Positions 6,756 to 60,900 of a DNA stretch of 64,000 nt are shown here, one piece after another (the stretch's first letter is position 1; each line of letters begins with the position of its first letter). Origin of the DNA: Patescibacteria group bacterium. Lineage in GTDB: Bacteria > Patescibacteriota > Microgenomatia > UBA10105 > UBA927. The notes below the pieces were generated by a model, which saw only the letters and a list, made by a program, of their open reading frames with translations, had not been told where the DNA came from and made no database searches. The translations under genes and the position numbers were made by a program. The stretch lies in contig DATKGN010000008.1 in the NCBI GenBank assembly GCA_035510735.1, positions 76,466 through 140,465 on the forward strand. Reading direction: 5' to 3'.

Positions 6756-6819
6756 GCTCTTGAATTTTTGGTGAGTATTATGGTACTGTGAGCGGTGACC
6801 TGCCTCAATTACGCTTATC

Positions 6820-8150: not shown

Positions 8151-8165
8151 ACAATAAGACTGGAT

Positions 8166-8183
8166 CCCGGCTCAGAGGCCGGG
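8166..8183 (+). terminator. GC-rich hairpin cccggc-tcagag-gccggg downstream of the GIY-YIG gene
   Basis: Perfect 6-bp GC stem, 6-nt loop, 16 nt after the stop at 8150. Not followed by a T-tract, so an intrinsic terminator is uncertain. Confidence 0.3.
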
Positions 8184-8199
8184 ATGACAAGAAAAGACT

Positions 8200-9776: not shown

Positions 9777-9781
9777 TCCGA

Positions 9782-11428: not shown

Positions 11429-11432
11429 TCGT

Positions 11433-27901: not shown

Positions 27902-27949
27902 AGTTCCTCTATTCATCATGCCAGGCTAATTCATATTTATCAACCAACA

Positions 27950-36900: not shown

Positions 36901-39900
36901 TCTGTTTCAAGGTTTCAGGAGCACCAACTGCCTCAAGTGCAACATTAGCTACTAATTCTGGCCGTATATAGAGATTTTGACTTTCAGCCGCACCGTAAAA
37001 CTTCTTAGTAAATGTAAACACTGCTTTCCGCAAATCAGAATACTCCGGGGAATTTGCAACATCAATTCTCGTGACGAACGAATGGTTTGCTACAGCATTT
37101 GCTAGTTTACTCAACGCGGATACCATTGCTTTTCCCGTTGAATCATCTAAATATTCTGGATCGATTTTTTTGCTATCAGGATCATCTATCACATCTGCCG
37201 CAGTCAATTGTTCCCTAAGTAAATTTTGGTCAATAACGTTGGTTTGAGACGTAGATAGAAGAGGTAAATGCTGATATCGCGTAACAATTGTAGTAACGAC
37301 CAAGGATATAACGATTTCCATTTGGTCCGGCGGTCCTCGCTCCGTATCCGACATGAGACCATATTGATTTTCAACTATCCGTCGAACTTCTTGAGGTGCA
37401 TTCACAGAGGTAAAATCAATTTGATCAAGTTCGGTTATACGTTTTGTTAACACAGCCTGTTGAACCACCTGAACCGGATCTTGAACCTGCGGTTTGGGTT
37501 GGATTTGAGAAATTGCTCGCACTGGTTCTTGACCCGTCCCCAAATCTCCTCCATCCACCTGCATAATTGGTTGATTGGATAATCCTGAGGAAATGTCAAT
37601 TTGTTCATCAGCGGCAACGGTGGGCTGGGTTCCGAATCTCCAGGCGAACCAATTCTTTACCTTGTCCCCTACTTTCCACCATCGTCCCGCGATAGGAACG
37701 GTCATCATTGTCCCCGTCGGGGCAACCGTGCCATCCTGATCGATTGCATGGGCTTTATACCTACCCCCCGGCTGAAGCGCACACGATGGCGTTTGGGCAA
37801 AAACAAGGCCGAAGAAGCTTTCAGTTGGAATACATGAGTCATTACTCAGCGCATGCCTTGCAAAGATAGCTTTCAATCTCCTCATTTTTAAAGGACTCCA
37901 CTGACTACTGTTAAGAATATTCCACACTTCATTTGAGTCATCTCCAACAACCCGTTCAAGTAATTGGAAAAAATCAGCCTCGTGACCCGGTGCAGCAAAA
38001 TATGAATGGCCAAAGGCAATCTGAGCGCTTCCGGGCGGCAATCCCGCAAGCTGATCAACCGAAGTCAGTACGTATTCAATTGGACCATGACTTCGAAAAT
38101 ACCCGACAATAACTGACTCTAAATGAAGTAATATATAGCTTACCTTTTTATATAAAGAAGCATGTTGGACTGCTTCCTCATGGAAATAATCCGTAAAGGT
38201 CTCATTTGGTAAATTATTAGTAAAATTTATCCGAAATTGATTACTTACTACACTTGCATGTGTAAGCTCGTGTTGAATGGCTGCTGGAATGGTAAAAGGT
38301 TGTATCCCTAATAATACAGTATCTGGTATCAATGTAAGTGGATTCGGGGGGGCTCGAAAGGCATAAAAATATAAAAAGGCAGTAGCTGGGAAAATACTTA
38401 CCCTAACTGCCCCACTCGAATTATTGCTATACCCACTCATCAAAGACGTCAGAAAAAATATGGGAATGTAAAGTACGCGATATTTTGTTTTTTCCCAAAA
38501 CGTTGATGAATTATCCCGAGCTATAGTATTTTCCAGTGTCCTATGAAACATAGAAATAGTTTTCACTACAAAACTAATTGGGTCATCGATAGTGGCAGTC
38601 CGAATAATTGTAGGGAGCAGCAATTTGGGCAACCCATATTTCCTCTGCGCGCCAATAAAATCCGAGTACGCTTCCCGACGATATAATCCGGATATTAATC
38701 CGCTACTTCGCAGATCATTATTGATCACATCCGTTGGAACTCCTTCTTGTGCGGCAACCCATCCATCCATAATTCGCTGATCGAATCGCTCATATATTTC
38801 TATTTCCTTCCTTTGATCTTCGGTAACATATTGCGCGCCGTACCACTTTGTTGTCATACGAGTTGAGATCAGACTCTGATCAATCCACGGAATGAGAGAC
38901 TTATATTTCTCCATTTCCCGTCTTAATGTATCTTTTTCCGCTTGAGTCCTTGGTGTTACCTTTTGTGTTTGATTTAATATAGTTATCAACTCATCAATCG
39001 TTGGCCTCTCAGTTTCTGGACTGACTTCTGTGGCCACGCTATTACGCAATACAGTTTCAAGGTGAGATTGCTGATGAGGTATAACAGGAAAACCCTCTAA
39101 TAGACTTGTCAGATTTATTAGTTCCGGTGTCATTTTCGCAGCGAACATTATTTTGGCTATTTCTTGTTCGATGGTTCTCGTCGGGCTTGAAGCTAATCCC
39201 GAAGGAAATAATGCTGAATTCTCTTCAATTACGGCCGTTACCGCTTTTATGTTAACCAAAATATATGTTCCTTTACTGCTTGTTAATAACAATACTCCTA
39301 AATATTTTTTGAAATATGATTGTAATTGTTGAAGCTGATCTTGAGAAAAATCAATGGAGTTATTCATATATCCGACAGGAATTAATCCTGTAGCGACACG
39401 TATAAATGTGGTGTAATCTAATGACTTGCGGGTTTCCAATGGAAGTGAATCAAGTAATTGTTGAAATGATTGTAAACCCTGCATGACACTTTCTTCGGTT
39501 ATATATTTCGGTTTTACACCGCTTTTTTGAAACTCCGACACCGCGTTTTGGACAGAATTTTCTACAATAGACCAATCTATATAATCTGATGAATTTTCTT
39601 TTGTCGATGTTGTATTAGGTTGCGCTTCGGCGGTTATTCCGGAGGCATCTATCGCGGTGATGATAGGTGCATCCATCGCAGCCTCAACTATCGGTTCCGC
39701 CGCATCAATAATGTGTCCGACAACACAGCCTGCACCACCCACCGTGCCTCCCGCCGCATATACCGCCGGAACGAGATGCATCGCACCAACGCCGCACGCT
39801 TGCCGCCTAATAGCTTTGGCTTTTTGTCTTATATAATCTTTTGCCGGAAGCGCTACGTTACGAAGTGGTTGTCCTGCACGAACTGCGGCAAGGGCAATAG

Positions 39901-42900
39901 ATGGATCAATTTTAAACGTTGGTGCTAACCGGACTCCGGGCCTTGCTGGTTTTGCTTTTTTCACCGACGTTTTTGCGTTAGTAGTTTTTACCTCAACTGC
40001 TTGTTTAAGTGTCACAGTATTAATCTGAGGAACAAACTGAATATTTCTATATTGGGACAACTGACTCGCAAGTTGGTTCAACGACTTCAACGCACCGGCC
40101 CAATATCGGAAAAATGTGATAATGTTTGGCAAAGAGAGAGATTTTGCTTGTTCTTGTGTTTGCCACTGTACATTTAGCTGTTGGAAACGATTAAAAAGAA
40201 CGGTGACAGCTGCATTTCGAGCAGTTGATTGAACAGTCGTTACTTTCACGATTGCCTTTCTGTTGCGGTAACGTTCAACCAAACCCGCAAGTAGCTGCGA
40301 TCGGAATATCAGCGAACCGAAGGCATCTGATAATTTAAGAAGCGTTCCCGCGAGAAAACCAACAGGAAGAACCGAATTTTGTGCCATCTGCGTCGCGGCT
40401 TGCGCTTCTTCTTTGGTTAGAACAATGGCGATCTGGCTTTTCCCGGGGCCGGGCGCAATTGTGCCGTATTTATTAACAAACTCATCAAACGTAAGCTCGC
40501 TGTAGCGCACCTCTCCGTCGGATTTAATCGTTTTTATCCCGTTTACATTCACTGTGCCATCATCAAGATAATTCGCATCATACACACGATATTTTCCGTC
40601 GGCCGTCTTGTCGGAAAGTAGGAATAGAATATGACCGGGCTCTTTTGAACCTTTGTTATACAGAACAATAAAGTGCCCTAATCCTGCATCCAAATCTGCC
40701 TGTGACTGCACGCGCTGCACGGCATACTGGCCTTTTACATACACAATTCCCGCTGGACTGTTGTTCAAATCATTGCCGACAATCTGCTTTGCAACTGCTC
40801 CACCAATGGTCGAAAAATCATTTATCCCACCAGGAAAATCAGTCAACCCACTTTGCTGCATAATGTTTGCGAATGCAATACATTGCACTTCCTCATTCGA
40901 AAAACCTGTTGAGGTGAAATCCAAAAATGTATACGCACTTGTTCCTTCTAATTTATCTGCCATATCGGCAAATCCATTTGCTTTGAGTCCCTGCCGCAAC
41001 GCGTCGCTTGCAGAAATTGCGTTACGTTTTGTTGGATCATTCTGCCAGTCATCAAGAATCTTCATTACTGCTCCGCCGAATTTGTCGACTTGAGAAGTAT
41101 AGACATGCCTATTTATAGAACCAGGGACATTTGCCACCGATAGAGAATTATCCGCGGCAACCTGAACATTGGTTGCAGATTGTGCAACGGGCGCAACTGC
41201 TGATTGAGGAACAACGACCTCTTGCGACACTGAAGCTGGCGGTTGTATCGGTTGTTGGTTCACAGCGGGCGGTGCATTTTGTTGTTGTGAGGTAGAATTA
41301 TTCCCAACCTGCTCATTATTTCCCGCCACAGGATTAACTGCAGAATTGGCCGGGTTAACCGGATTAACCGGGTTAACCTGAGGATTTATGGTGTTTACTG
41401 ATGGTTTTTGCTGCTGTACAACCTGGACATTATTCACCTGAGAAGGAAGGGACGCGCTGTTTCGATTGTTTTGAATCGTTGAAAAATAACCGGCAACAAT
41501 CGCAGCTAATGTGAGCCCGATGAGTAACACGGTTGCTCTCCTTCTGATCATTGGTGCACGGAAGGCAAAATATGCAAGCGTGCCGATGCCCGCGATACCG
41601 GCGAGTATACCCACCGTCGGCAGGGCTGTCATGATAACCGGTGAGATTACGGCTCCAGCCGCCGCTACAGCTGCCGTAATCCGCGCGCCATTACTCTCCA
41701 GTGCTTTTATAATGAAATATGCCGCCGCAGTTACAAGCGGGAAACCGGCAACCGCCGCGATACCACGGAAATGATCTTTTATGAAATTTCCAATAGTATC
41801 GATTGTTGAAGAAATGAATGATGGTGATTGTGAAGTTTTTATAGACGGATTTATCCGTGCACGTTCCGCCGAGATTCGTGCTAGATGTTGAACGTATTGA
41901 TTAGGAGTTACATCTGATCGGTTCGGCGTAAAAATATTTAATAGCCTTAATTTCTCCGTGACAGAAATATCGCTTCTGTCTATGGACTCTATAGCGCGTT
42001 GTGTAATAATCGCTTCGACAACACAATTAGCCATTGACCCTTTACAGGTATCCCCCGTACGTATGGCATACCCGCTCGCAATAGTATCGACGGGAATGGT
42101 CTTTAAGATCTGAGCTATCAAATCTCTCAGTAATTGAGACGACCTGTTTGCGTAATAGACGGGTTGATCTATTTTTTCATTCATAGCACCCATCCATGCA
42201 GTTGTTTTTAATTCTTCAAGATTTTGGAGATATTGTTTCCAGGCGTCTCCTGCTGCTTGCAAATATTTGTCTTTTACGTCTTTGGCACCTGTAGCATTGA
42301 TGATCCGCTGAAGCATCCAGTCGTACGTTTGTCGGGCGGCACCAAAACCTTTGAGTGCATCCGTCCTGTTAGTCGCTATCATCTGATCGTTCGCATTATC
42401 AGAGAGGAATTGTGTCTCACGCGCAACCTGTTCCCGGTTTTGAATTGTGGTCTCTGCTTCATCAACGAGCGCCATAAATGATGCATATCGGCTGTCAGAC
42501 GGGAGTATTTCTCCGGATAAACCGTTCTCGAGGTTGAGAATCCTCGCGTCATTTGCACCGAGAACTTCTTTCAAATCGTCCAATGATATGTATTGTCTCG
42601 TTGCTCCCCATGACCGTATCTGATCCTTTCCCTTGCTTACAGGGATAAGCCGGCCAACCCTCCCCCTGATTTGTTCGAGTGTGCTACTCTTTTGAAGCCC
42701 GCTGATGAGCTCAAAAAATCCTCCCGCCTCCCGGACCTGCTGGTCGGGCTGGAAATCAACACCACGGCCGATATTCGCAGTACCTACGGCAATATTCCCC
42801 GATGTGCCTGCTCTTGCAATATTTTCAGCTTTATCTCCGCCCGCGCGTTCGGATATAAAGATGGCATTCGCAAAAGCTGCAGTACTGCGAAGAGCGCTTA

Positions 42901-45900
42901 AGGCTCCTTCATTTTTAACTGCAACTAATACTGCCCTGTGTTGTGCCCGAATCGATTGTGAATCCTGACCCAATGCTTGTTCTTTCGCGCTATCTGTGAT
43001 GAACAGTCGTGGGGAGTAATCAACTCTGTCTTTTTCAAGGATAACCCATGCACCCGACTGCTTATGGACGACGCTATATATCCACTGCTTGCTTGCCTGG
43101 TCATATAACTGAACTAACAAATACTCAGGATTATTCTGATTTTGTTTTGCCATGGATATATAGAGCGGGAAAGGAATCGCTTTCGGAATCAATCCATAGT
43201 ATGTCTCAAGCTCATTCCCCTCCTGAAATGCAGTCGCGGTAAATATGACGACCGATCCCGCCTCTCTCACGAACGTCATGGTGGTCTGTAAATCAAACGT
43301 CGTATCGCTTATCTGGGTAAAATTTTGCGTCCGCCCATGCTTCGCTTCAAGCGCCCATTGGAGGCCACTTTGGAACTTTTTGTCAGCGTCCGTTATCTGT
43401 TCATCATCGAGTATCGTAATTTCCCCGGTCGTCTGATCGTAAAGGTAATCTACCCCCTCTTTCATAAGCGAAGCCTCACGGGCAAATTCGACGTAGCCTG
43501 CAAACGTGTCATCTGACATTCCGGTTGGTTGCAGTATGGATAACTCGGCAATTGCTTTCGGCGTGAGCGATGATAAGGTAATATCCTCAGGATCAAACGT
43601 ATAATAATCCCGATTCCCTGCCCATCCCTGCATTTTACCGGCAAGAGCTGACAATACATTCATCTCTATAGTGCTCAAATTTTCCGCTTCAGCGGCTTGC
43701 CCGGTACGTACTATCGGTGTTAACGCCTCTTGTAATACACTTTTATCGCCCTCATCAGGAATCAGCGTATAATCGGCCAAAGGAATGTTGACGCCGCTTT
43801 GCAACGCAAGAGAGTAGGCTTGCGCGATATCAGTTAATTTTCCGTAAATAATCGGCACATTAGGAGTGAGGTATTGTCCTTTATCCACAACTCCGGACGG
43901 CACACCAAACACGGAGAACAGATCCGAAACGTCATGTAAGTCCCGTGTAGCTAAATCGACGTTCGCTGAACTGACCAAGACTCCTGACTGGAATAATGAG
44001 CGCACTAACGCGACACAGGCAGCAGCATATGTTTTACCTGTTCCTGTCGGCAGCTGTACTGCGATATGATCGGAAGCTATCGCATCATAAATAGCAAATA
44101 GTTGAGCATCCGTAAACGATTTCCCTTTATTCGCCTGTAACACTAAATCGAAAAGTGCGACGGCACGGATTATCCGCGTATTTTTTTCGCTACCCGAAAC
44201 GTGCTTACCGGTTTTCATAACTTCATTCATAAATTCCGAGACCAGGAATTTAACCGGTCTTCCTGATTTGGTAATGCGCGCCTCTTCAGCCGCAATGGCA
44301 TCAGTAAACGTCAACTCTCCTGAATACTCGGTCCGTATAAACTTCACCATGTCGTCTTGTTCTTTACGGACGTAATTCACAGACCGGGATACTGATTTGC
44401 CATTTGTCCCCACAGTATCGGTAACGTTCATAGTTACTTTCGGAACAAAGAAATTCCCGATAGTGTGGACAACTGTTGTTACCGAGGTCGCCCGATTACG
44501 GATATCCTCCTGTAATTTTGTTCGAATGGAATCTACTAATGTCTTTACTACACCCTTATCTTCGTGGATCACATACGGTAACTCGTTTTGTACGAAGTCA
44601 TTCGTTTGATTTTTCAGACTCTCTCTCATCAGCGCTAACTCATCCGTAAACAATGAAGGATTGTTGACATGGAGAGCAAAGTTGGTAGAAAGATCCAGTG
44701 TATGGGAGTTGACCTCGCTTAACGGAACAAACAGGCTTCCAACGCCTACTGTCGTTACGGGTAATAAACTCATGTTTTTGGAATCCGGGTTATTCGGCAA
44801 ATAAAACTCTTTCAGAAATATATCGAATGGGACCGTGACTACCTGACGTACTCCTTGTCCGCCGGCTCCGGCAAAATACCTCTGAATCATATCCGTCTCC
44901 CCCATTGCGACTCCGGGGTACTTTTTCTTTAAAGCGTCAAAATTTTCCGAGGAATATAATGTCGTGTCAGCGCCAATTTCATTAGAGAATGAAAAATCCA
45001 TTGCATATCGGGTGCCGTCAATAACCGTTGTTACCACTGCGTGTGCGTCACGAATTGCCAACCACGTTACAGAGGACGGAATACCCATCGTTGATAAATA
45101 CGCCTGTGCAAGGGTTGATTGATCGCCACACGCACCAACCCCTATGGCGTCGGGTATATGATAGGTTTGAGGTGAGCGGGCAGCGGTAGTTTCTGTATAT
45201 GGATCTACTATGGAGATAGCCGCGTGAATTGCATTTAACGCATCAACTTTTTCCTGTGTACTACCCGATTGGAATATTATCTCAATGGCATCCCGTGAAT
45301 AATCTCTTCCTTTGTTTTTACCGATAATTTGGAGCTCCGAATCCAATGCAATTAATATCCCCTTCCATGCTTTGCTCTGCAAATCCTGATCATTCAGAAT
45401 GACATTGGGAAGATTCGGATTTCTTAAATATTTATTTTCATATAATGAATTAGCTACCTGAACATAAATTTTGGACGGATCATTTGTGATATACGCTCCG
45501 GTATCAGCATCATAATATTTCCCGTTATTCTCTATGACATGTTGTCCGAATGGCGTCGTATACACGGGATGATCCTTCTTTAATTGCCCCAGTGAATCAA
45601 CGTTTAATCCATTTGGTGTACTGATAGGTTGTATGGGATTTAACTGTGCATCCGCCAGTGATGGAATATTCGCGATATCGGAAGGTGAATACGTCATAGG
45701 AGTTTGTCGGCTATAGTTTGCAATAAGTGAAAGGAGATTTTTATCAACTCTTGGTGCTGCCTGCACAGATAGTGGCTGGCTATTAGATGAAGCGCCTGTT
45801 GTTGAGTTCGCCAATGAAGCTTGCGATGGATTCGTCTGAAGCGAAAGTTGGTCCAGTTGACCCTGAAGCGTATTTACCTGAACTATTACATTATTTATCG

Positions 45901-48900
45901 TTTTTATATTTACCTGTGAATTGGCATCTATTGCTGGTTGATTATTTAACGAAGCAAAATATTTTTGATTTATTGGTGAGTTCGGTATCGGGTTTCCGGT
46001 CTTATCGACCTCCAAAACCCACGCCGTAATCTTAAACGATTCTTTATTTATAACCTCGAGTGAATCTGGGACGATATTATTGGTCGAATCCGTTGGGGCG
46101 TTTTTCCCTAATATATATCCATTATTTGCAAACCACGGATTTAGGACAGCGGTATTCGGCTTCGATTCATCAAGAGTAAAATAATTACTCGTATATACGA
46201 TCTTCAACCGTTTGTCTGAATTATTAACCACAACATATGGAAACCCCGTTGAAAATGAATAATTGGAAAGATTCCCGTACCACCCCGCTAAAAATGGTTC
46301 ATGATCAAAAGGTTCATGGAGAGCATATCCGGGTTTGACAAATAATCCGTCAATGCCAGTCTGTTCTATTGCGGTCCCCAGTGTTGCCGCATCAGTGCAT
46401 ATGCCAGATCCATTTAGGCCGTTGTACACCACAAAGTGTGTCGGCATTGTTTTTCCGAAAGCAATATTTGCAATATTGACAGATTTTCCTGGTTCAATGA
46501 TTGTCCCGCTAATCCTACTCGAGACATCCGCCACATTACTCAACTTCCCCCATCCTTGTTGACCCCTTTCACCATCATAATATGCCGTAGCGGTTTGTGC
46601 CCTATTCTGCTGGAGGTATGCCATTCCGGTATCAAACGCTGTAGCGATGGTCGCACCTAAATGGGCTGTTTCATAATCCAGAAGAGATGCACCTTCAATG
46701 AAATTAAAATCTCGATGAGACAAGTTATCACCATTTATCGCCATTGATACGCCAAACCGCTGACCGTTCGGAAGTTGAATAATACCGCTGTTGTTCTCCC
46801 GAATCCAGAGATGTGGTGAATCTGTATACGATGAAAATAAGTTAATCGCAAACGGATCCTTTGTTTGAATGGAGGAAAATCCTTTTTGATTGAGTAAATT
46901 ATCGTATCCGCTCCCCTTCGGCACAAAACCACCTCTATAATTTAAAATAGACAATAAATAACCCTGTTCATCCTGATGCGACCACCAATCTGATGTTCGC
47001 AAATCTTCATTAAGAAGCGTCAATGACTGTGTCATTGCCTGAGAAACGGTTGCGTCTTGTATCGGATGTGCATTGTAATATGACCAGAATTTCATAATAT
47101 CTGCCGTAGTTGAAGTATTTGATGTGAGGTCTGTATCAGACATACCGATGGTGGCAAGCAAATTGTTTACTTGGTTACTTACTGAGGATGTAGAAAGATA
47201 TTGTGTTAATTGAGTCGCCACTTTTTGTTCACCTTTTCGTTGGGCAAGCTGTGAATCAATAATTTGTGACACCGTCATCCCGTTAAATCCTTGAGGCGAA
47301 TAGTTTAAAAGATCTTGCCCCGATAATCCTTGTTGCTCCAACAGCGAAATCAGCGCATAGACCTTTACTGTATTTAAATTTGAATCCATGGTCATATGTA
47401 CTGAATCATTCACGCCAAAGATTTTCCCTGTGTTAAGATCAATTACACTTATACTCACAACGGCATGTTTATCATTCGTAAAGTATTTATTCTGAATTTG
47501 TGTAGCTTGACTAGTTAGCGCCGCCTGCAAATTCTGGTAATTCGTCTGGCGGATTTGTTCACCGGTTACCGAACGGGTAGAAACCTCAAGATACTTTTGC
47601 CCAACGTCCGTTGACAAAAACGTATTTATATATTGGGTAATGTGATTAGTGTCCGTTTGATTACCCGACACATAGGATTGAATGGTAGTCGCAACAGTAT
47701 TCATAGTAGCTACATCGTCACTTGAAAATTCTAAATTTGAATAATTTTGTGAAACGCCCTTCAGGTCTGAAGCGAATGACGTAAGGGAAGTATTGAGAAG
47801 TTGCCTCTGCGAGGCAATTTGTTGTGAAATCTGCTCCGAAGGAGAAATATTTTTATTTGACGGTACATTAACCTGAGTATTACCTACATTGGCATTAGTA
47901 ACAGTACTTGGATTAGCCACCACTCCGGTTGTCGTATTCACTTGATTACCGCTTACGGGACTGTTTGCAACAACCGGCTTTGATTCCAACAATTGTTTTG
48001 TTGTATATTTAGCCGCGTCAGGCAATGTTGTATATTCCGGCGGAGCAATGACGGAGAAGAGCGTTGGTGTTATTAAAATACCCGTTGTTACAAACCCTAT
48101 CCAACTTAACAATCCAATGGAGAATGGTACAGCGCTACCAAAAGTCAAAATCGTAAGGGCTACCGAGGCTATTCCAAGAGCAGCAAAAACGTAAGCGCCC
48201 GTGGGGATTGGTCGACGTTGTGGTGCATATGAGGAGAGCGGTTTTGGAAATTGAACCGGCACAACAACATCGTTAGTGTCACCCTTCGCCCGTATCACGA
48301 GTTCATAATTCGTTGCATTTGTACGACGAAGGAGAACGTTGATTTGTGAACCATCCTGCATTTGGACGGTGATTGTGTTATCTACGGTCAACGGCACCCG
48401 ATCATTTCCTATAAACATCTTTATTTGCGGATCGACACCATTTTGAAGTATCTGCGGATCAAAACCGATCTGTAACGAAGAGGCGTAGACATATCGTTTA
48501 AAATCCGAAGGAGATACTATCCAAGACAACTGAATTCCATCCTGAGTTGCTTTCACGAAATGGAGCCTCCATCCAATCGTCTGCATCGGAAGTATATTTG
48601 CAAAAACATAATTTTTGTCACCCCGTGGATGTGTTGCAAGAAGTGCCTGTAGCCCTTCTTGAACGTGGACGGCAAAAAGAAAATGAAGAATTGATTTTGC
48701 CTGTTCTCTTTGAGATGCGGTCGCATATGTCGCCTGGATATCAGCATTCTTTTCAAACGCAGCCAATACAGTATTCCATTGCAATCCGGCAACATCACCC
48801 GTACGCATCGCCTGATCGACAACGCTCCGGACAAAATTATCAAGATAAAGAAGATCTGGATTTTGAGTAAAATCTTCCTCTTCGGGGCGGAAAAGAACGA

Positions 48901-51900
48901 TTTGTAATTCTTTTGAAAGGTTGCTGTAATCACCTTTCTTGAACAAATTCCATCCGGTTTTTGAAATATAATCATTAACCCTCTGAAACATTGTCAGCTG
49001 AGCGGTTAATTGAGCAGCTTGGGCTGTTTGAGCATTATTGTTTGCTTGTTTTTCTTCAATAGCGGCCAGGACTCTCAGTAATGCATTACGCGTGCTCGCG
49101 ATCCACAAATTCTCATCAACATTTGCACTGGCGAGCACGCCGTCGGCGACACCGTTTTGACGCAAATACTCCCGAAGCGCATTATCAATCTGATCTCTCG
49201 ACCCGGTCGTAATCGCGCTTCTCACTGATGGATCATCAAGAAGGGTACGCTGTAAAGATAAAAGCAAGTCTACATAGTTGATAAATACCGGCCGGCGCGC
49301 GATTTCCAGGGCTGTTACCACCCTATCGATTATTACTTGCTGCGGGGATTTCGAAGCAGCCGCGTGATACAGAATATCTCCGGTTGTCCGCGCCGCCGCG
49401 AGATTAGATTCCAAATACAATGCGGGCAGAAGTGCTGATACGATCGGTGATGTTACAACACGTGCGGCTGCCGATTCATGGACCGCGCGCTCTTTGGCAA
49501 GCGCTTCCGAACCGGCAATCAAGGCTCTGGTGTCATCTGCGGAAATAACTGAAGATGATTGCCATTGAGCCTCGGCGTCAAGTAGCTGTGCTTCCAGCGC
49601 CTGTTTTTGCTGCTCTCTCAGCGTGAGTTGTGCTTGTTGCGCCTGTCGTGTTTCGACAATCGAACGGGCCCGTGTCACCTGCGCAACCACCGTCGGTACA
49701 TCGTGTAAACTGCTCAATTCGTGAGCTATTTGATTCACAATGGATGCATCCCGGGCGTCTGCATTTTGCACCAGCCGTGCTGCAATTGTTTCCCCTGTCA
49801 GGTTCCGCATCGATTCGTCAAGAGGATTACCAATTTCTGCGATAAACTGTTGGATCGCCGCTGTATCAGTAGGGCCAACGATATTCGCAAGGACGAATGC
49901 AGTTTTAGATTCCCCGGGGTTTGTAAGATATTCATTCATTGCGACTTTTAAATCTGCGCGGCTTAGTTTCTGATCGGCATACATACTTACAAGTAACTGA
50001 TCCAAATCCGTAATGACAGCCTCCTGATTCTTTCCGGCAATTGCCTGAGTAAGTAATGTGTCCGTAACGCCAAAATATGTTAGACGCTCTTGGATAGTCT
50101 GACGGATGACTGTATCGCTTGCGCCATTAACATACTGGGTAAGCACGGGACCGGGGCCCAAAATATCCATCATTGCAAGTTCGTTTGCGGCGTGGAGCTC
50201 CTGTTGTTTTTGTTCTGTCCAAAGACCAATAAGCCGGAAAAATAGCAGACGTGTTGCGATTTGTTGTTGATCCGTACCCGTCGTTGTACCGCCATTCGTT
50301 TCGGTCGGACCGGCATTTGATCCTCCGCCGCCCGGCGGCTTAGTTCCTGTTGGTGGGGCACCCCCACCCGGTGGCGAAGAAGGCGATTCGGGATTGGTCG
50401 GCGGCTTTTGATAATTTTCAATTGATTGGATGAGCGCATCTATTGCCTTTGAAGCATTTGCCGGAAACTTGCTGCCCGCGGGCATAAGTGTACGCAACTC
50501 CTGGTAGATAGTTTGTAACGATGACTGTATCGTCTCCGACGATAAATCAGAGCGTAATAACTGGGAAATATCGGAATCTATTTTACCCAATGTTACGGCT
50601 TGTTTCTGCAGCGAATCCAGACTGCCATGCGCTTCATGGTATTCTTGGACCGTCAGGATAGTGTCCAAAAGCCATCCGGCAATGTGTGCACGGGCGTACT
50701 CCTCCGTTGAGGCAAAATTGCTATATTGAAGCGCTTCCCGGACGCCGGTTTGAAATTCTGAAGCATCAGGCTGGTTTTGACCAAAATCTGTATTTATCGA
50801 CTGACCTCTTGAGCCAATGATTGATCCGGCTTTTAAAAGTGCCATTACGTTTGGCCATGGATGCATCATGAGAGAAGCGGAGATGAATGTTACGTTAGAT
50901 AGCGACTGTGCAAACGGACCATACGTCGCCATGATGATGAGCCGGTTAATCTCTTCTGGTGTATATTCTTTGGGCTCGGGTAAGTATGCGTTTTGTATAT
51001 CCTCAAATGCTGTAGTTACCATGTCAGTTCGAAACGTAATCTGATTTGTCAGTATTTCTTGTACATACCGTTCATCCTCTCCCGCCGGCAAATGTAATGA
51101 AGCAACAAATTTCCGTACGTCGTTTTCGTTAAAATTTGCCTCCACTTTGTTGTTTGGGGAAAAGTCCGGTAATCCCTGCGGCACTGCTACCTGCGGCAGG
51201 TTCGTCGTAAGGACAATCATGGCGTTTATCGCCACATCGATATCCCCACGCATAACAGACCAAACCGTGTTGTCCCCGCCGGCCAGACTGATAGCCTGTT
51301 TCAAGAGTGTAAACGCTTCGCCGTATAATTCCTGAGTATTTTTGTCAGAAACCTGATAGAGGATTTGTTTCACCGCCGAGGACTGTGCATATATAGTCGG
51401 CCAATCATACGGTCGATCCGGTGTATGCAGAATGACACTGGCAAATACGCTCGTATTCACTCTCCCCCCATACGTATCAAGCACTCCCAGAACATCCGCG
51501 CGTTTACCACCTGGAGTAAAATCCGTAGTCATATGTTCCAAAGACATACTGTCAGGATATGAAACGCGGAGTGCAGCGATAATGTTGTTCTGCTCCGCCT
51601 GTGACAACAACCCAAATTGGTCATTACGAGCGCTAAGGAGAGCGGCCATCTGATCTCTGATGATTACCTCAGACTGATCGTTATTGAGTATGTCTTGTTT
51701 TCTCCCCCACTCATATTCCGTTACGGCAGCTAAGAGGTTTGCGAATTCACTTGTATTGATGCCGTATTGTTGGGTAATTCGAGCAGTAGATTCAGCAGGG
51801 GTGCTTCCAGCGTTCGCGCCGAGGAGTGAATTGAAGAGTTCATTTTGAACGATTACGTTAACATCAGTAAGATCGATGAAATCATGAAGAGTCGTCGCTT

Positions 51901-54900
51901 TTTTAACTTCTGCTGGCAAGCTCGTATTCTTTTCCAGGGCATTAATGGCAAGCTGAGTCTGGGAAAGCGCCTGGGGAATTTGGTTAATATTCGTGGACCC
52001 GATCACACGCACAAATATCGGCAGCCGGGCAAGGAAATCCGGAAAATTGCCGCTTGCTTTGGCCAATGTATTTATCGCTTGTTGGATACTTTTGAGTTCT
52101 GCAGGCGTGGCTCGCGCGAGATCATTTAGTGATGCAATTGGTATCGTACCGGATAGTAATGCATCAATAAACATCTGCTCAACTTGAGGGTTCCCTTTCC
52201 ATCCTGCAGGCAATCGGGCGAATAATTTACTGGCAACTGTTCTTGCTGTTTGTTCTTCCAACATAGTAACGATGGATTGAAGTTTCGTAAAGCTATATGT
52301 TCCCGTAATAGCATCAACACTACCCAGAGCAATTGCACGCTTCGCTAATGTAACGATTGCTTGTTGTTTTTCATCGATAGCCTTACGCAAAATAGGATCT
52401 ACCGCTGGAACACTCATCGTCGTACCGTCAAAAAGCGTATACATCTGCTCTGGCGCAGCATTCCTTTGCAAGGAATCTAAATTATTCTGGCTTTCGCCGG
52501 TCCGAAAATTCAATCCATCGGCAAGATTGAGCACTGCTGCATTCTTCAGGCTCCACATCCCCATACCGCCAAAATGATAGGTATCCTTTGCCACCGTCTC
52601 AATCGCGCTGATTACCTTGGTACCGATACCCTGATTTGTCTGTTTAGCGACAATCATCGCCAACACCGGTATCGTCTGTTCCCCTGATGTGCCGAGTAAG
52701 TTATTCCGGGTTTCCGTTAATACTGGCGGTAAATTATCCGATCCGACTAAAAATTGATTAGGATTAATAAATGTCAACCCCAACATATCCAATTCGTTAC
52801 TCTTTAGAATATGGATTGCCATCGTATAGGCGTTACCTGTTTTTTGGTATGTAGTTTCCAATTCAGTAGCAGGAATGCGTTCCAGTGCAGATTCTTGATT
52901 TTCATAGAGGATGCCTACATCAGTCATCAATCCCTGCTGATGTAGCTCACGGGTAAGATCCGACGCGAACCTGGTCATCAAGACTAATTCGTGAAAATCG
53001 GTACTCCTTCTCACCGGGTCGATATAGCGATAGTTTTCCAAATAGTCGTCAACCGAAACGCCGTCATCCTTAAGCGCGTTAAGCATATCCAGTGTCGCAG
53101 GCCTGTTGGCTTTTTTGAGCTTATCCAAATCCGCCTGTGCCGTTGCAGCGATATAATGCTGCCAAACATTTTGCCCGTTCTCTCCGACTTTACCCATAAA
53201 ACGGACAACGATCGGTTCATTTGATCCCAAATGTAATCTGACAAAATCACCCGGCTGTATTTGCTCAGAAATATTCTTATCCAAATCTGAACTTATTGGA
53301 ACCTGCTTGTAACTTCCAAACGCAATGCCGGTTTCATCTGCCTTATGAGTACTGACATCAATAATCCCGTTAACGTCCTCACTTCTCCAGGCGGTAAGAA
53401 GCGGATTAAGTGCCGTTCGTTCGGCAGCCACATACGGCACAGCATTGACTGTTGCGGTTCTCCAGGATTGCGGGAGTTCTACTTCGGAGGGCACATAGCG
53501 CTGCCAGGTATTCGTCCCGTCCGATAACGTTCCTGCAAAGAGGAAATAATACGTCAATTCGGACTCGGCAACTGGACGAATGCTTACGACTCCCCCGTTT
53601 TTCTCATCCTGATACTTTTCGATCAATGCGTTTTCCCAATCACGAAGATTTGATGAAGAAATAACAGGATAATCCGTTGTATCATCTGCGCCAAACCCGC
53701 CATCCGTTCCAAGTGAATAATGGCTCTGTCGAACTGCGATTGGTCCTGATTTCACGACGTCGGCAAGCAAGCTGGATAAGCTACCCCGAGTTAGTTTGTT
53801 TTTGGTAGCAGTACTTTTGGCGTAGGTCGTATTGTTGATAGTGATAATCGGAGGTGTAGTCAGCGTATCATTAAGAATTGTTGTGTTGATGAGGGTGATA
53901 TGCGCCTGAATGTGGTCAATAAGTTGTTGAACATTAATCGAAGCCTGGATTATCCCGGTTAAACCGGTTTGGTCGGCAAGTCCGTCCTCAATACCCCTCA
54001 GGAGTTTATCCAGATTCGTAAGTTGGCGGATGGTGATGCCATCGGCGTCGATCTTTGTATCAACGAGAGCGGCAACTTCACCAAGAAGCGACTGGAGACC
54101 CTGAACGCCTTTATCCCCGTTTCTCCAAGCCTTTACCGCTGAGCGAAAATCGCCTTCTAATAGTGGCTGAAGCGTGTCGGTGACTAATGTGTCTGCCGCC
54201 AACGCTAATCCGTCTTTCTGACCCTGTGCAAACTCGCTTTCTAATGTTTGATCGAGGAGCGCCGTGGTCCATGTGGTGTTTTCTGCACCATAGGCGCCCG
54301 TTGAAATAGACGTAAGGAGAACTCCCATAGCCGTAAGATGTTGTTCGATGACTTGAGCGCTTTGCCCGGAATCCGTCATCCTATTGAGACCGGCATACCA
54401 CACAGCATGCAGCGCGTCATCGACGATACCACTTGCGATACGTGCTCGGGCGTCCTGGATGCGCTCTTGAAGCCTTGTCGCCTGTGTTCTGAGACTTGCT
54501 AAGTCCGGATCAGTTGCGACCTGCCCTATGGCAATAGTGACATCCGCAATATTGGGAGCGCTAAACCAACCCTCGGTTATTGATCTTGGCACTGATCGGA
54601 ATATTTCCTCTGTATCAGTTTGTTTCTGTTTGACCTTGTCTAATACTGGTTTGATTATGGCTAATTGATCAGCCACTGTCACATTAATCCACCATGCTTG
54701 AATGGTTGCAGGGATGGGTTTGCCATTAAATTGAGACACATCGGCAATAGCGGTTATCCTTGACACGACAAGCCCATCAGGATCGTCAGCAGCTACAGCA
54801 TCGGTCTGAATTGAATTACGTTCCTGTACGAACGCTGTATTTAATGCCGAAAGCATGCCGATGGCATCGGTATGAAGGCCAACCAGAATATTCTGGAATA

Positions 54901-57900
54901 GCGTACTTTGATCCGGATCCGCACTATCCAGTGAGGGTCGACCCGACCAGTTGATAAGATTGGATACATCATACCGACCACCCGCTGCTTCATTAGCCAA
55001 GATTGCCCGAATAATGCTGACGCGCCTTCTCGAAACAGTAAAATACGCCTGGATGGCATCATGTTTTTGTGTATATAATTCTTTTCCTTTGGCCTGTGCA
55101 CCAGAAATGGCAAAATCTAATGCCGTAAGATCATCTGCTGTTAATGTTATGTTGTATGAGCCTAATATAGTAATAACGTTACTAGCGGTTAACGTAGTTG
55201 TGCCGGTTGTGGAAATAGCGTTCGTAATATCCTGTACTACCGATTTGACAACAGCATCGACAATTTGACCCCGAAGCGTTGTAAGCGCCGTATCAATCGT
55301 CGATTGCTTCGCCGTCGAAGGAAGCCTGCGGACGGAAAGTAACTTTGCGTTTTGTACGGACGTAACCAGCGCATCGTAGCTAGTACGGTCGGACGGTATC
55401 GCGGCTTCAACTTTTACTATGAACCCCTGCAATTGATAATTAATTTGTGTATTTTGAGCTATTTGAGCATCAACATTTTCTTGCGTATATGAACCGCTGT
55501 TGAGTAAGTCATTCCTGTTGGTGGTTAGCTGAGAAGCTAATAGCCTGCTCCGTAATGCTTGGAGACTAAAGTCTTCTCCTCTTGCGATATCTGCATCAAC
55601 GAGCTGACTCACTAAGTCCAAACGGGAAATATCAACTTTTTCCGTCTGAAGCCCGTGTACATTTGTCCACTGTTGATATTCGCTATCCGGCAATCGTGCC
55701 GCCTCCCGTGGAGGTAATAGAGTGATGGCATTAAATCGTGCTACAGCTTTATCAGCAATTACTTGTTCAGCGGGTGATTTTGGACCATTCAATTTTATTG
55801 AATTATTATATATATCTCGTTCCTGATCGGTTAATGTAGGCGGCAGTGATTCAATTGTGGCCGGAAATGGCTTAGTTTTTTTGGCCAACTGAATCGCCTC
55901 AATTTTCAATGAAATCTCAGAAATCAAACTTTGTATATCCCGCTCCAATCCGTACACCCGATAGATTGGTAGAACAGCCGATTCCAGTGCCTGTTGCAGA
56001 CGTGTTAAGGCGTTGACGCTTTGTAACGAAGCTATCCTGTCGTTAATTAACGGCAGAATATCGTTCTGTAGCTGGGTAATTAATGTCGCCCGGTCAACTG
56101 CGGTGATCGTAAATCCGTTCAATGATACATTGATCGATTTGAGCGCATTTACTACTTTTGCCAGCTGCGACTGCGTCTGTTTCACCTGCGTTTTAGCGGC
56201 TGCTCGTGCTGTTGTTTTCGGTGGTTTCACAACTGGTGTCGTCGGTTTGACGGCCTTCGTGAGACTCTGATCAATCAGGTATTGTAAAAATGCCGCCACG
56301 CGCTTCTCGACAGGGTCCCGCAATATACTGGTCGTATCAGTATATTGAAACGTCGCAGGCGGAACTTCACTGCTAAATTGGGCAATTGCAGAAGCGAGAA
56401 GATTTTTCGTTCTTGTAAGATCATTTTCTGCTATCGGCGAATTCATTGAGTTAAATGCCTGTATAAACCCGTTATAAAAATCCATAAGATCCTTCATCGT
56501 ACCGTTCTTAAGTTTTTCTATGATGATATCTGTTGTCGCGTCAGCACTATGGACGCCGTCTCCGTTAATCATGTCGGTTAATAAAGAAGTTGTATCGGAA
56601 TACCCAAGGCTTTTGGCGAACTGCTCGATACTGATGTTTATCGGCGCGAGCGTGGTCGTTAACAAGTGCTGGCCGTTAGTTACAAGCGTATTAAGACCTG
56701 TTCCGCTCGGTTCTAGGCGCAGGGTCGTCCTGATATCGCGCAGTCTTGCTCCCAATCCACCTATGATGCTTTCATCATAGAAAACCGGTGTCGTGATGCT
56801 TCCGCCCTCGGCCGTCTGTATCCACCGATCAAACAAACTCACAGGATCAGTGAATAATGGCTGAACTTTTTGAAAAACCGGATCAGCGGTAATAATCTTA
56901 AATTGCGCGCGCAGAAGATCCGCTTCCAGGTCTCCCCTACTTTTTACCGGAGCCGACGCCGCTTTTTGAAGCTGTTTGATCATTGGAGCAAGCGCTGGCG
57001 AAAAACCCGCCTGATGATATGCCTGCCGTAACGCATCTTTAATCAAGGGGAACATCACCAGGTTATTATTACCCTGCACATCCTGATAGGTCGACACCGG
57101 GATACCTGACTTCTTGCTCAGGGAGTTATAGATACTCTGTCGGAACGTATCGGCAAGCTTATTCGGTTGGATCGTATAATATTTGTTTGCAAGACTGGTG
57201 ATTTCGGATGTTACAATTCTATTCGTCATCGTAAGACCACTCATTTGCTCGTCAGCCGCCGTAGAATCTGCATCATACTGTGCACTCAAACTATCATAGA
57301 GCCATTTGCCGTACGCGTACGCGAGCTCTTCCCGTTGACTGCTTTTATCGGCGTCTTTACCCGCAATATTCATGAGTATAAACGGCTTCACAAGTCTCGT
57401 CTGCTGATCTTGTATAAATTGATCCAAATCGACTTTCACTCCACCCCATGATTCATAATTTGTCGTATTCACACGTAGCGCCTGCTGCAATATTTTTAGA
57501 TTACTCTGTATTATTTGAACTCTATCCGCATTTGAAGCGATTGTTCCGATAGCGAGATTGATGATTTCTTCATTGTTACCGGCTTTACGCGCAATCCCCA
57601 AAATACTTCGCCACAGGGCGCCGGTAACCTCCGACTGAAGAGCTTTCGAGATATTGTTAACAAGAGCCATGGAAGGCAACGAGCTTGGGCCAGAAAGGAG
57701 ATCTTCAATAAACTTGCGTATAATCTTTGCCACCGCCGGATTAATCCCCTTTGGCGTAAATGCAGCGACAACGGCTTCAACGGTGCTCGTTTGCGGCTTT
57801 GTCGGATTTAACGCGTCAAGCGCCTTTGCGAGATTCTCAAGCGGAGTCTTCAAATCTTTCGGAGCTGTATTTTTCAGATCCCGAACTTTTTGAGCAAGAT

Positions 57901-60900
57901 CGGGCGCCGTATCCTTGAGGGCTGTTGTCGTAAACACTACTGGTATGTTTGCCGTGGTCTGGTTAATTATTTTTTGCGCATACGCACTTCCGCCGACTGT
58001 TCCCGCGATAAAGCCATTAAGCGACGTCCCGGTAAAAATGGTTGCTAATGCGTCTATCGTCGTTTGATAAGACGCGAGTTGATTTGTTTGTGCCGTGGGA
58101 ACATCCGGAAGCCGGAGCGTTGAAGGCAGCTTCCGTATCGCATCCTGTTGGACGACCGGCACCGCGACCTTGGCGCCCGATTTAGGCAGTTTATTCACAA
58201 ACATCGCGATTCCCGATGTATCATCAATGGGTTTATTGCCGATTAATTGTGCCACCCTGCCGACCATTTTACTTGCAGCCATATCCGGCGTAAGACCATT
58301 ACCGCTTAAGATATTAAACACTTCAGTATTAAAGCCGGCTCCGCGCCTGGCGTATTTCCGAAAACCATCAGACAGAAGCATCACCCGGTCTCCCTCGTAC
58401 ATTTGGTACATTTCGATATTCGCTCCCCAAAATAATGTCGATCCGAGTCCATTCGGGAGATTCCCCTCCGCCTGGATAAGCGGAGAACCGTTGATTACGT
58501 CCGCACTTGCACGCCGCAGGGTATTTAACGGATATATTCGTCCCTCACGCAGAAGCATCATATCGCCGTCACCAACGCGGATGGTAATGAGACGCCCTGA
58601 CGGATGGATAAATGCCCCAGAATAGATGGTTCCCGCGTTTTTATCACCGAATTCGTTAATCATCTCGCCATTTACATCCTTCATCTGTGCCTGAAGGAAC
58701 CCGGTAACCTCAGGTAGCGGCAATTTCATTGCAGCTTTTTGAATTTGTTGCATGCGCGCCACAACATATTGCGCGCCTTCCGCTGACCGCGGCCGTTTGG
58801 ATGCACCGTCTGCATCACCAATGGAATATACACCGGGCTTTGTTGTGATCACGGCGTCCTGACCCATCGTTTTTGAAGCCTCCGGTTTATCTGTGTGATA
58901 GGCCGTTCCTTTACCCTTTCCGACTAAAACGTCTGTGACCCCTGTTACATCAGATGCATCAAACACACTCGCGACGCCATCAGCGGTGATATGCAAATAA
59001 TAGGTGCCATTAAATTCGGTAAAATCAATCTCTCCGTGATTATTAATCTGTGCTATCCATTTCGTACTCCCGATTTCGATTATCGATTTATCCTGAATGG
59101 TCGTTTGTGCTCCTATGGCCGAAACTCTTCCGTCAATAACGACGACATTATCAATATTCGGAATTATGTAGAAACCGGTTGGCGTATGCCCAAGCGTAAA
59201 CGCATTCGCCGGTATGGTCACATCTGCTATCCGGATACCTGCGTCTTTTCCTGATCCGATTGTTGTATCCCACGTATCAACCACGGGCTGCACGGGAACG
59301 ATGGTAACACTCCCATCCTCGTAAATTGCGATAAATTGTGATCCGTCAGTTTTCCAAAGATACGGCAATCCATCGGCGTCAATCCTAAATGTATACGTCA
59401 GCAAATTCGGTAGGATTATTTTATCGATTTCATGAATGAGGGCTTGATCACCAATATTCATGGCGATTCCGTTGAGTGTAACATTAACTTTCAGAGCTTT
59501 AATATAAAAAGCTCCATTTTGATCCTGAATGATATATATTGAATTATCTCCGATTAGCTGAGATGTAAAGCCGGATTGTGGAGCTGCAGCGATCTGATCC
59601 CGTGCCGCCTGGATAATGGCATCGACTACCGGTTGATTGATAAGCGGGCGGAGCTCGGTATTTGATGGACCTCTCCTCCCCCTCACGCCGGCCGGTATCG
59701 TATTAATAAGCAGGTTTCTGACAATTTCCTGTGTCACCGATAATTGTGTGTTCGGCGCTTGTAAGGATGTTACTGCCGCATCAACCGCCTGTTTATATGC
59801 CGCATCCGTGGATGCAAGAGCATTGAGGCGTGCAATGGCAGCCGTAATGGCCGCGCTCATCGTTGTCGGCGCCGTTACCCGGCCCTTAGCGCTAACGAGT
59901 TTCCCTTTAATTTGCACAAGCAGACTGGGCAACCAACGGTCACCGGTAGTTTGACGTGCGATTCTGTCAATTATTGCACTGGCTTTATCATAGTTTTGTT
60001 TTTGCGTCGTAACAGAGGCCCCGGTTGTAGTCCCATTCAATGCATCATAAAATGCATTTTTATCATCTATCGACCGGAATAACCCAGTGTACAACGTATT
60101 TGATAGTGCATCATTAACATATTCCACAATACTTTGTGCATCAAGCGTCAGCGTCGGTCCGGTCGGTCCCGCTGTATTAATTGCTTTCGTCAGCGCACGG
60201 GAGGCTTTCGCGATATCACTCCCCCGTTTGATGAGACTGGTAAACGGATGTGCATCCGTCCAGTTCGCTTTCATGTAATCGATAAGCTGTTGATACGGGG
60301 TGAGCGTTGTACTCGGGGCCGCAGCCGCAATCTGATCGTTAATCTCGACAGATAACGCGCTTAAGAATGCCCGCACTCCACTCACAACATCTGACACTTG
60401 AGCACCAAGAGTTCCGAGCGGAGAATTAATTGACGGCTTGCCCTGCAATTGAATATGTAAATCATTCCACGCACGAATTGCGGCGGCAAGATCCTGACTT
60501 TCGTTCATTACTTTATTGATCATTCTTGTCGACGTCCGCTTCTCGACTCCTAACGTGGTAAACCAATTCGTGAGATATGACTTTTCCAGAGTTGCTGTGT
60601 AGAGCGGATTTGCGACAAACGCATCCCGGAGTTGAGGGGAAATTGACTCTGTCGCGATTGTGATAAGTGCAGTCTTCGCATCCGTTAATTGCGATTTTGT
60701 GATAAGCGCGCGGCTTTTCATCGACGCCGTTAAATTATTCAGATTCTCCCACGCATTGATTTGGATAGCCACCTCATCTACCGGATGAACGCCTCCGGCG
60801 CTGATAAAGGTTCTTATGTTCTCCATCATTTGATGAGCCTCCGCAACCGGATCAGGTGGAGTATTAATAATGAGGTCATATTCAGCCTGAGCTGCCGGCC

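Follow-up and report, generated by a model that had tools for sequence, protein, structure and literature searches.

A SecA-like motor without a wing inside a giant membrane-tethered protein of Patescibacteria

Introduction

Very large and giant proteins with numerous transmembrane (TM) regions have been described, chiefly from Omnitrophota, by West-Roberts et al. (2023, bioRxiv 10.1101/2023.11.21.568195). These proteins carry divergent SecA DEAD and preprotein-binding domains without the wing and scaffold, and C39 or S8 peptidase, GNAT, and GGDEF domains also occur in them. The same work reports giants of Actinobacteriota with SecA, GGDEF, and Ser/Thr phosphatase domains, and its authors put forward the idea that a giant of this kind is exported by its own SecA domains. 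A 2026 preprint (10.64898/2026.06.07.730766) describes a cluster of architectures with PF07517 only ("SecA DEAD-like only") in the set of Omnitrophota proteins with 10,000 amino acids (aa) or more. Here we describe a giant gene in a 64,000-nucleotide (nt) stretch of contig DATKGN010000008.1 (assembly GCA_035510735.1, Patescibacteria group bacterium), which we call the window; its product has a SecA-like motor embedded in a membrane-tethered polypeptide. Given the two earlier reports, the kind of object is already known, as is the leading hypothesis about it, and a first-pass annotation of this DNA was wrong to call the architecture undescribed. Our literature search returned no report of such a SecA-bearing giant in Patescibacteria. 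What differs here is the phylum, Patescibacteria, the modest TM content, the retention of the scaffold and finger of SecA, and a conserved core that the earlier papers do not mention.

We compared the protein with the giants of West-Roberts et al. ("Archaeovorins," the Dockerin-type giants, and those of Actinobacteriota) by description only. Like those proteins, it is encoded in a small genome by a single open reading frame (ORF) that exceeds 10,000 aa, has TM segments, and is mostly dark to hidden Markov model searches. It also resembles them in having a highly divergent SecA_DEAD and preprotein-binding region beside TM helices and no wing, along with GGDEF-like, Ser/Thr phosphatase, and Cys-protease-like domains; GNAT domains are found in its relatives. 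Unlike those proteins, it comes from Patescibacteria, which are not among the phyla listed there, and at 12,000 aa or more it falls below the 30,000-aa threshold set for "giant" in that work, where the proteins have 30,000 to 85,000 aa. It has few TM segments, with one conserved hairpin, rather than "numerous" ones, and it keeps the scaffold helix and two-helix finger, whereas scaffold and wing are both lacking there. We detected neither glycosyl hydrolase nor dockerin nor C39 domains in it, its core of beta-lactamase-fold, VanW-like, and transglutaminase-like parts is unmentioned there, and no sequence relationship to those giants was detected beyond generic SecA similarity.

Results

On the minus strand of the window, there is not one in-frame stop codon between 27952 and base 64000, a run of 12,016 codons. 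The frame is still open at base 64000, so the N terminus lies outside the window and the full protein must exceed 12,016 aa. The program-made ORF list gave the gene as 27950..63928 (11,992 aa, with a GTG start at 63928), and no in-frame stop lies ahead of this GTG. We number residues from the window edge, with residue i at nt 64000 - 3(i - 1), so that the span of 40550 to 58900 in which the first-pass annotation had proposed a giant membrane-tethered protein corresponds to residues 1701 to 7817. Giants collinear with this protein, at 37 to 44% identity, were found in three other assemblies, and independent Logan and JGI contigs hold the same downstream gene or the 3' end of the giant gene. Neighboring ORFs are identical to NCBI proteins HUD19814 to HUD19836, which are labeled Patescibacteria group bacterium and come from a contig of 184,161 bp. 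The giant is thus real and undivided, a gene at least 36 kb long in a genome of the Patescibacteria, or candidate phyla radiation (CPR), and the proposal of such a protein was sound.

Embedded in the giant is a SecA-like motor. The Pfam model SecA_DEAD matched it above the cutoff (E = 1.4e-10) and P-loop_SecA matched below threshold; NCBIfam SecA models matched down to E = 5e-23 over model positions ~44 to ~650, with a score of 81 bits against a family cutoff of 862, which is not reached. A phmmer search matched 24 SecA or SecA2 chains of the PDB, down to E = 8e-11, in alignments spanning the two nucleotide-binding domains (NBD1 and NBD2) and, between them, the preprotein cross-linking domain (PPXD), and identity of the module to SecA is 16 to 31%. 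The Walker A motif GTGK6656T, DEGD at aa 6749 to 6752, GRGVDF, and RGRVGR at aa 7112 to 7117 are all invariant in the homologues. The first-pass annotation had called a SecA/SF2 ATPase at 42.65 to 44.1 kb, and our analysis bears this out for a module that is larger than the one it reported.

We modeled aa 6534 to 7400 with AlphaFold2, using an alignment of 118 sequences made up of the segment, its closest relative P0001 (introduced below), and SecA matches. The model had a mean predicted local distance difference test (pLDDT) score of 83 and a predicted template-modeling score (pTM) of 0.82. Foldseek aligned it to full-length SecA and SecA2 with E values down to 3e-26 over ~850 to 900 alignment columns, and the top TM-scores went to SecY-engaged SecA (6itc at 0.59/0.66, 5eul, 3din, and 3dl8). 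The scaffold and finger motif WKQYL..GAMNEKIDQPVYY aligned to W..L..LRGYGQ.DP..Y of SecA, and WKQYLQNLEELKTTAWMGAMNEKIDQPVYY aligned to W..L...L...LRGYGQ.DP..Y of SecA, which covers the scaffold helix and the two-helix finger. Near aa 7231 the module lacks the helical wing domain, a part of 45 to 85 residues in canonical SecA, and the C-terminal tail of canonical SecA, including the Zn tail, is absent from the embedded module. Weak matches to SecA_SW at profile positions 114 to 190 in three family members agree with a retained scaffold and finger and a lost wing. The C-terminal helices of the module had pLDDT values of 66 to 82, and they may have been drawn toward a SecA-like arrangement because the alignment was built around SecA sequences. 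As judged from its motifs and this model, the SecA part is a near-complete SecA without the wing.

Canonical SecA and SecA2 share with the module an NBD1 with Walker A and DExD motifs, the PPXD, motifs V and VI of NBD2, the scaffold helix, and the IRA1 two-helix finger, and the model superposes on full-length SecA, best on the SecY-bound states. Unlike those soluble proteins of 800 to 950 aa, the module is embedded in a much longer chain, has neither wing nor C-terminal Zn tail, carries a 44-aa insertion, and does not conserve the fingertip Tyr. An analogy is offered by SecA2 systems, which serve specifically to export very large adhesins. A Cys pair in the motif D-x-C-x-G-S-x-x-N-C-V-x-E-A (aa 7319 to 7326; 42023 to 42046), invariant in the compared members, sits just after the two-helix finger, at the position of the C-terminal tail of canonical SecA.

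We searched for relatives of the giant by scanning 1.84 billion representative proteins exhaustively with HMMER, using aa 6201 to 7150 as the query. Among the matches listed, there was one true relative (E = 9e-223; 44% identity), MCL4200211.1, here P0001, a complete protein of 7,694 aa from a Patescibacteria metagenome-assembled genome that NCBI names "GNAT family N-acetyltransferase." The matches that followed it in the top 150, again among those listed, had E values of 7e-20 or worse and lengths of 502 to 2,176 aa, and all nine of these that we scanned with Pfam were of SecA type. Two more organisms came from scans of genome and metagenome collections: L005, whose ORF spans at least 9,022 aa in a contig of 1.17 Mb, and L006, whose ORF spans at least 9,106 aa on a contig named Hain-H43-01um, which we take to be the 0.1-μm groundwater fraction from Hainich. 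Word-indexed homologue searches with the core, the four-sequence alignment, and the PP2C segment returned no relatives. The family thus has four members; two have a Patescibacteria label at NCBI and the other two are unassigned or otherwise labeled. One record, L004 (CAYIBX010000002.1), is labeled "uncultured Gammaproteobacteria" in a family that is otherwise labeled Patescibacteria, and this label is probably a binning or naming error. We judged L004 and L006 to be one organism because their BLAST identity figures and G+C contents are identical.

The conserved family core runs, in order, from a TM hairpin through a beta-lactamase-like domain, a conserved Cys block, and a transglutaminase-like core to the SecA module. 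A second conserved module, at aa 10412 to 10992, is common to all four giants. Outside these regions the members differ: a GNAT acetyltransferase domain, above the Pfam threshold or, in L006, just at it, occurs at differing positions in all three relatives (L003, L005, and L006) and is missing from this giant, and no PP2C domain turned up in those parts of the relatives that were at hand. Since the core is shared and GNAT and, as far as seen, PP2C differ between members, we describe the architecture, on the basis of these alignments, as a conserved core with long variable arms.

For the beta-lactamase-like domain, Beta-lactamase2 scored 21.2 bits against a cutoff of 22, and the NCBIfam class A model matched with an E value of 6e-4. 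When a four-sequence profile was compared with the PDB, the best six matches were all class A beta-lactamases (E = 0.003 to 0.13) in collinear segments. The order of secondary-structure elements in a low-confidence AlphaFold2 model also resembles the class A topology. The fold is thus supported weakly but consistently, which goes some way with the first-pass annotation's penicillin-binding fold at 47 kb. In all four homologues, however, the position of the catalytic SxxK motif reads SNLNxV[K/Q] and that of KTG reads [L/M]FS. Lacking SxxK and KTG, the domain would not be a serine hydrolase if the fold is real, and it is probably noncatalytic; the working hydrolase that had been supposed here does not stand.

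The next part of the core is the most conserved block outside the SecA module. It gave weak VanW matches in all three homologues (E = 0.008 to 0.04), no VanW match by Pfam in this giant, and no match in the PDB, and it is possibly VanW-like. The transglutaminase-like core matched Transglut_core with E values of 0.007 to 0.01 and 16.6 to 17 bits against a cutoff of 23; such matches appeared in two of the four family members only, even at E ≤ 5, and the PDB gave none. The order and spacing of the triad are as expected (G-x-C6291...H6320...D6335), with C6291 and H6320 invariant and D6335 present as D or E in the four homologues. A transglutaminase-like core, called at 45.1 kb by the first-pass annotation, is therefore plausible: the C/H/D triad is there, and the profile scores stay below threshold. 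The segment at 40.7 kb that the same annotation had read as Cys/His peptidase-like found no support. Pfam gave no match for it even at E ≤ 5, the PDB gave chance matches to antibodies only, and it is not conserved in the homologues; likewise, Pfam gave no C39 or S8 peptidase match anywhere in the giant.

The TM segments lie at three places, namely two clusters, which bear out the TM clusters of the first-pass annotation, and one more at the window edge. In P0001 the hairpin is the only TM element; an N-terminal signal is missing from that protein, and its SecA module is followed by GNAT and GGDEY domains. There is no TM segment between the beta-lactamase-like, VanW-like, and transglutaminase-like parts and the ATPase. 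A hydrophobic patch at aa 6410 to 6430 was considered as a hidden TM segment and rejected, being short, with a central Arg or Lys in the homologues, and coil in the low-confidence model. A hairpin of two helices leaves both of its flanks on one side of the membrane, and the simplest reading of this topology is a cytoplasmic conserved core tethered by the hairpin. Cluster 2 comes after the core. Straight after the SecA module, the sequence RAPMIRRRA precedes the final hydrophobic helix of the cluster, of 20 residues, and a linker rich in N, P, Q, and V, with NPVNPVNP, follows it. Because of these flanks, the last helix looks like a signal anchor.

In the N-terminal arm, Pfam PP2C_2 matched aa 1709 to 1901 (E = 2.7e-6; 27.5 bits against a cutoff of 24; profile positions 8 to 198 of 209). 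The second-ranked Pfam match to the segment was SpoIIE, a related PP2C-type family. The acidic metal-binding motifs of PP2C are all present by inspection (GQD1715, D1731-G1732, VGDGD, SD1878G, and D1926-D1927), where motifs I, II, VIII, and XI were judged against those of PPM phosphatases. Neither the PDB nor the other databases searched yielded a homologue that could be aligned to the segment. The phosphatase is apparently intact, and the earlier call of a PP2C domain at 58.3 to 58.9 kb was correct. Taken together, the gene, the family, the SecA identity, and the PP2C identity are assignments that we hold with high confidence. The GGDEF-like palm pair of the second conserved module is degenerate in this giant, reading KGDTY and AANDMY, whereas P0001 has a GGDEF match above the Pfam threshold, with GGDEY.

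The giant is acidic, rich in Ala, Thr, Gln, and Asn, and poor in Cys. Its 12,016 aa hold 18 cysteines, none of them in aa 1 to 5867 (46399 to 64000), compared with 0.67% Cys in neighboring proteins, and L006 is likewise Cys poor (8 in 9,106 aa). In the C-terminal arm there are five copies of a Cys-loop motif, C-x10-14-[VF][FY]A[QA]-x3-9-C. Close Cys pairs, five in number, are confined to this arm (P of ~5e-4 by simulation), and of the giant's five [VFILM][FY]AQ tetrapeptides, four lie inside these Cys loops. The same motif occurs in P0001 (aa 7150) and L005 (aa 6120 and 7957), and it could be a disulfide hairpin or a site of processing or sorting. Chunked BLAST found two internal duplications, one of 147 aa within the C arm (aa 8712 to 8858 and 9375 to 9521; 35438 to 37867; 65 to 77% identity) and one between N-arm aa 574 to 749 (61754 to 62281) and C-arm aa 10991 to 11173 (30482 to 31030), at 26% identity (E = 3e-11).

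Downstream of the giant in window coordinates, 27 kb of DNA encode sugar-modifying enzymes and many multi-TM proteins that look glycosyltransferase-like by inspection. Within positions 1 to 27213, there are ~10 large multi-TM proteins of 446 to 904 aa that resemble GT39/ArnT-type glycosyltransferases by inspection only, and interspersed ORFs resemble GT2-type enzymes, also by inspection. Other genes there have the NCBI names DegT aminotransferase, Gfo/Idh/MocA oxidoreductase, epimerases, and alanyl-tRNA editing protein. This region looks like a large surface-glycosylation island adjoining the giant. Immediately downstream of the giant's stop codon is a gene for a 241-aa protein that is possibly cotranscribed with it. 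No tRNA or Rfam features were found in the window. Table 1 lists the features with their positions.

Table 1. Features of the giant protein and its downstream neighbor in the 64,000-nt window
Feature	Residues (aa)	Window position (nt)	Strand	Remarks
Giant single ORF	at least 12,016 codons	27950..64000	minus	Stop codon 27950-27952; frame open at window edge
Hydrophobic TM-like segment at window edge	1-19	63944..64000	minus	Kyte-Doolittle hydropathy 2.05
PP2C/PPM phosphatase domain, apparently intact	1709-1930	58211..58876	minus	Pfam and motif inspection
Conserved family core	4593-7391	41828..50224	minus	~2,800 aa; 37-44% identical to three other giants
Two-helix membrane hairpin	5267-5319	48044..48202	minus	Preceded by RR; conserved in P0001, L005, and L006
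Beta-lactamase/penicillin-binding protein-fold-like domain, probably noncatalytic	5508-5760	46721..47479	minus	Below-threshold profiles; PDB profile matches
Conserved Cys block, possibly VanW-like	5830-5950	46151..46513	minus	GTIIEPGK...GSGxC5868xxAxTLG
Plausible transglutaminase-like Cys protease core	6253-6340	44981..45244	minus	C6291, H6320, D6335
SecA-like motor	6596-7300	42101..44215	minus	NBD1, PPXD, NBD2, scaffold helix, two-helix finger
Beta-rich insertion of 44 aa	6948-6991	43028-43159	minus	Specific to the giant family; between NBD1 and NBD2; overlaps weak PBECR2 match
TM cluster 2	7413-7510	41471..41764	minus	3-4 helices; last helix signal-anchor-like
Segment called Cys/His peptidase-like, unsupported	7700-7820	40541..40903	minus	C7707
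Part of C-terminal arm	8069-11562	29315..39796	minus	Five Cys-loop motifs and duplicated 147-aa module
Two GGDEF-like palm domains	10412-10992	31025..32767	minus	Second conserved module
Neighboring 241-aa protein		27194-27919	minus	Signal-peptide-like N terminus; 30 nt downstream of giant's stop; NCBI hypothetical HUD19836.1, 235-aa version

Discussion

The reading that we favor, to which we tentatively give somewhat less than an even chance, is that the protein is a membrane-tethered giant whose wingless SecA, acting in cis, exports the distal arm. The hairpin would tether a largely cytoplasmic body to the membrane. The SecA module, which keeps its ATPase motifs, preprotein clamp, and SecY-inserting two-helix finger, would dock on SecYEG and thread the polypeptide that lies behind it, that is, the signal-anchor-like helix and the 4,500-aa C arm. 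The arm would thus be delivered to the cell surface, and PP2C and the transglutaminase-like protease would work in the cytoplasm, with a part in regulation or in the processing of the long chain. The signal-anchor-like helix and the Cys pairs suggest that the C arm is exported, and a surface role of the C-terminal 4,500 aa is possible.

Several results weigh against export of the arm in cis. TM cluster 2 is missing from P0001 and L006, so that among the members examined only this giant has it, and whatever role of the SecA module is shared across the family, it cannot then be self-export of a downstream arm. How many helices cluster 2 contains is itself ambiguous (3 or 4), and the C arm could therefore be cytoplasmic. 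The N and C arms share a domain, the one found as the second duplication, and the C arm holds a GGDEF-like module whose homologue in P0001 sits in a cytoplasmic context. Within the motor, another residue stands in place of the fingertip Tyr of the two-helix finger, and no specific tie by sequence to the SecA domains of giants in other phyla was found; among the matches listed in the exhaustive search, those that followed P0001 were SecAs of ordinary size. Recognizable domains are absent from more than 85% of the giant in Pfam, NCBIfam, and PDB searches, with no PDB match by phmmer for the remaining ~11,000 aa, and an AlphaFold2 model of aa 5400 to 6560, from a two-sequence alignment, had a pLDDT of 35.

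The main rival explanation is a wholly cytoplasmic, membrane-tethered mega-scaffold or polyprotein from which nothing is exported, and we think it rather unlikely. The hairpin and a four-helix cluster 2 would only anchor the chain, PP2C, the GGDEF-like domains, and the GNAT domains of the relatives would carry out signaling or modification chemistry, and the SecA-like ATPase would remodel or unfold polypeptides or pass other clients to SecYEG, while the protease may cut the chain. P0001, with its one hairpin, no signal peptide, and GNAT and GGDEY after SecA, fits this explanation, as do the RR on the N side of the hairpin and the domain type found in both arms, and the PP2C, GGDEF, GNAT, and SecA families need cytoplasmic cofactors. 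However, a four-helix cluster 2 would put the RRR loop outside, contrary to the positive-inside rule, the Cys pairs lie only in the C arm, and a stretch of 5,867 residues devoid of Cys is unusual for a cytoplasmic protein beside neighbors with 0.67%. The kept PPXD clamp and two-helix finger also favor translocation over generic ATPase work. A further proposal, which takes up the machine for attack, adhesion, or envelope remodeling suggested in the first-pass annotation, is that the giant faces outward and that its beta-lactamase-like and transglutaminase-like domains cut or cross-link its own or the host's peptidoglycan. CPR bacteria are episymbionts, and the penicillin-binding-fold, VanW, and transglutaminase-like families are usually extracytoplasmic and related to the wall; the acidic, Cys-poor composition rich in Ala, Thr, Gln, and Asn also speaks for such a machine, which matches the predation hypothesis published for Omnitrophota giants (bioRxiv 10.1101/2023.11.21.568195). 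Against it, SxxK and KTG are absent in all four homologues and no TM segment parts these domains from the ATP-dependent SecA module, the sole intervening patch (aa 6410 to 6430) having a central Arg or Lys and being predicted, at low confidence, as coil. Moreover, the hairpin keeps both flanks on the same side, and P0001 has the hairpin only and no signal. The position of the core on the ATPase side of the hairpin argues against outward-facing wall hydrolases, and we consider this machine improbable. The annotation had joined a phosphatase, peptidoglycan- or cross-link-cleaving hydrolases, and a motor on one polypeptide; the PP2C domain, the plausible transglutaminase-like core, and the SecA-type motor do stand together on this chain, and what falls is the attack by wall hydrolases and the claim of novelty.

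Two other explanations are more remote. Polyvalent proteins of phages and conjugative elements were reportedly described by Iyer, Burroughs, Anand, de Souza, and Aravind in 2017, and they resemble the giant in having many unrelated enzymatic domains per polypeptide, including peptidase-like and nucleotide-signaling ones. The giant might accordingly come from a phage, plasmid, or conjugative element, as a polyvalent protein or effector that is injected into target cells with its many disparate enzymatic heads; a weak PBECR2 match (E = 0.046; aa 6908 to 6987) and one PHROG of unknown function that matches the SecA region, in a PHROGs search that gave nothing else useful, would point the same way. 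However, searches of 50,697 phage and 72,556 plasmid records turned up nothing related, at the nucleotide or the protein level, other than ordinary SecA, IMG/VR gave no relatives either, and PADLOC returned no matches of note. The flanks, with glycosylation and housekeeping genes, are chromosomal in character, one homologue lies in a 1.17-Mb contig, and the neighbor of another lies on contigs of 1.13 to 1.23 Mb. The giant also differs from polyvalent proteins in being far larger and membrane anchored, with a SecA-type rather than an SNF2/DNA-type motor, and in lacking a mobile-element context or phage, plasmid, or viral relatives, and we regard such an origin as very improbable. An artifact of assembly or annotation, in which genes were fused by errors or a noncoding frame happened to stay open, is conceivable for a metagenome-assembled sequence most of whose product matches nothing known. 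Yet a 36-kb stop-free frame cannot arise by chance at 45% GC, collinear giant ORFs occur in four independent assemblies, and the downstream gene or the 3' end of the giant recurs on independent contigs from Logan and JGI; this leaves the explanation with a negligible chance.

A more specific form of export in cis, which we put forward as a speculation with a rather small chance of being right, is that of a self-exporting giant peculiar to CPR. In it, the wingless SecA would be a private motor, fused immediately upstream of a signal anchor, that feeds the protein's own 4,500-aa arm through SecYEG onto the surface of the episymbiont. The VFAQ Cys loops would mark repeated units of folding, processing, or sorting in that arm, and the beta-lactamase-fold pseudoenzyme and the transglutaminase-like protease would be cytoplasmic modules for quality control or processing.

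Our results extend the phylogenetic range of SecA-bearing giants beyond the phyla reported so far. The family is a compact and tractable example of the SecA-inside-giant architecture: its members range from 7,700 to more than 12,000 aa and share a single conserved hairpin and a core of 2,800 aa. The confident model and the retained SecY-engaging parts make the idea of an own export motor directly testable with the isolated 750-residue domain. Patescibacteria have genomes of ~1 Mb and depend on host cells, and at least 3% of the genome in one gene implies an important function. The ways by which Patescibacteria contact their hosts are poorly known. If the CPR-specific form of export in cis is true, the giant would represent a previously unknown route for secreting very long polypeptides and a candidate organelle for host contact in Patescibacteria.

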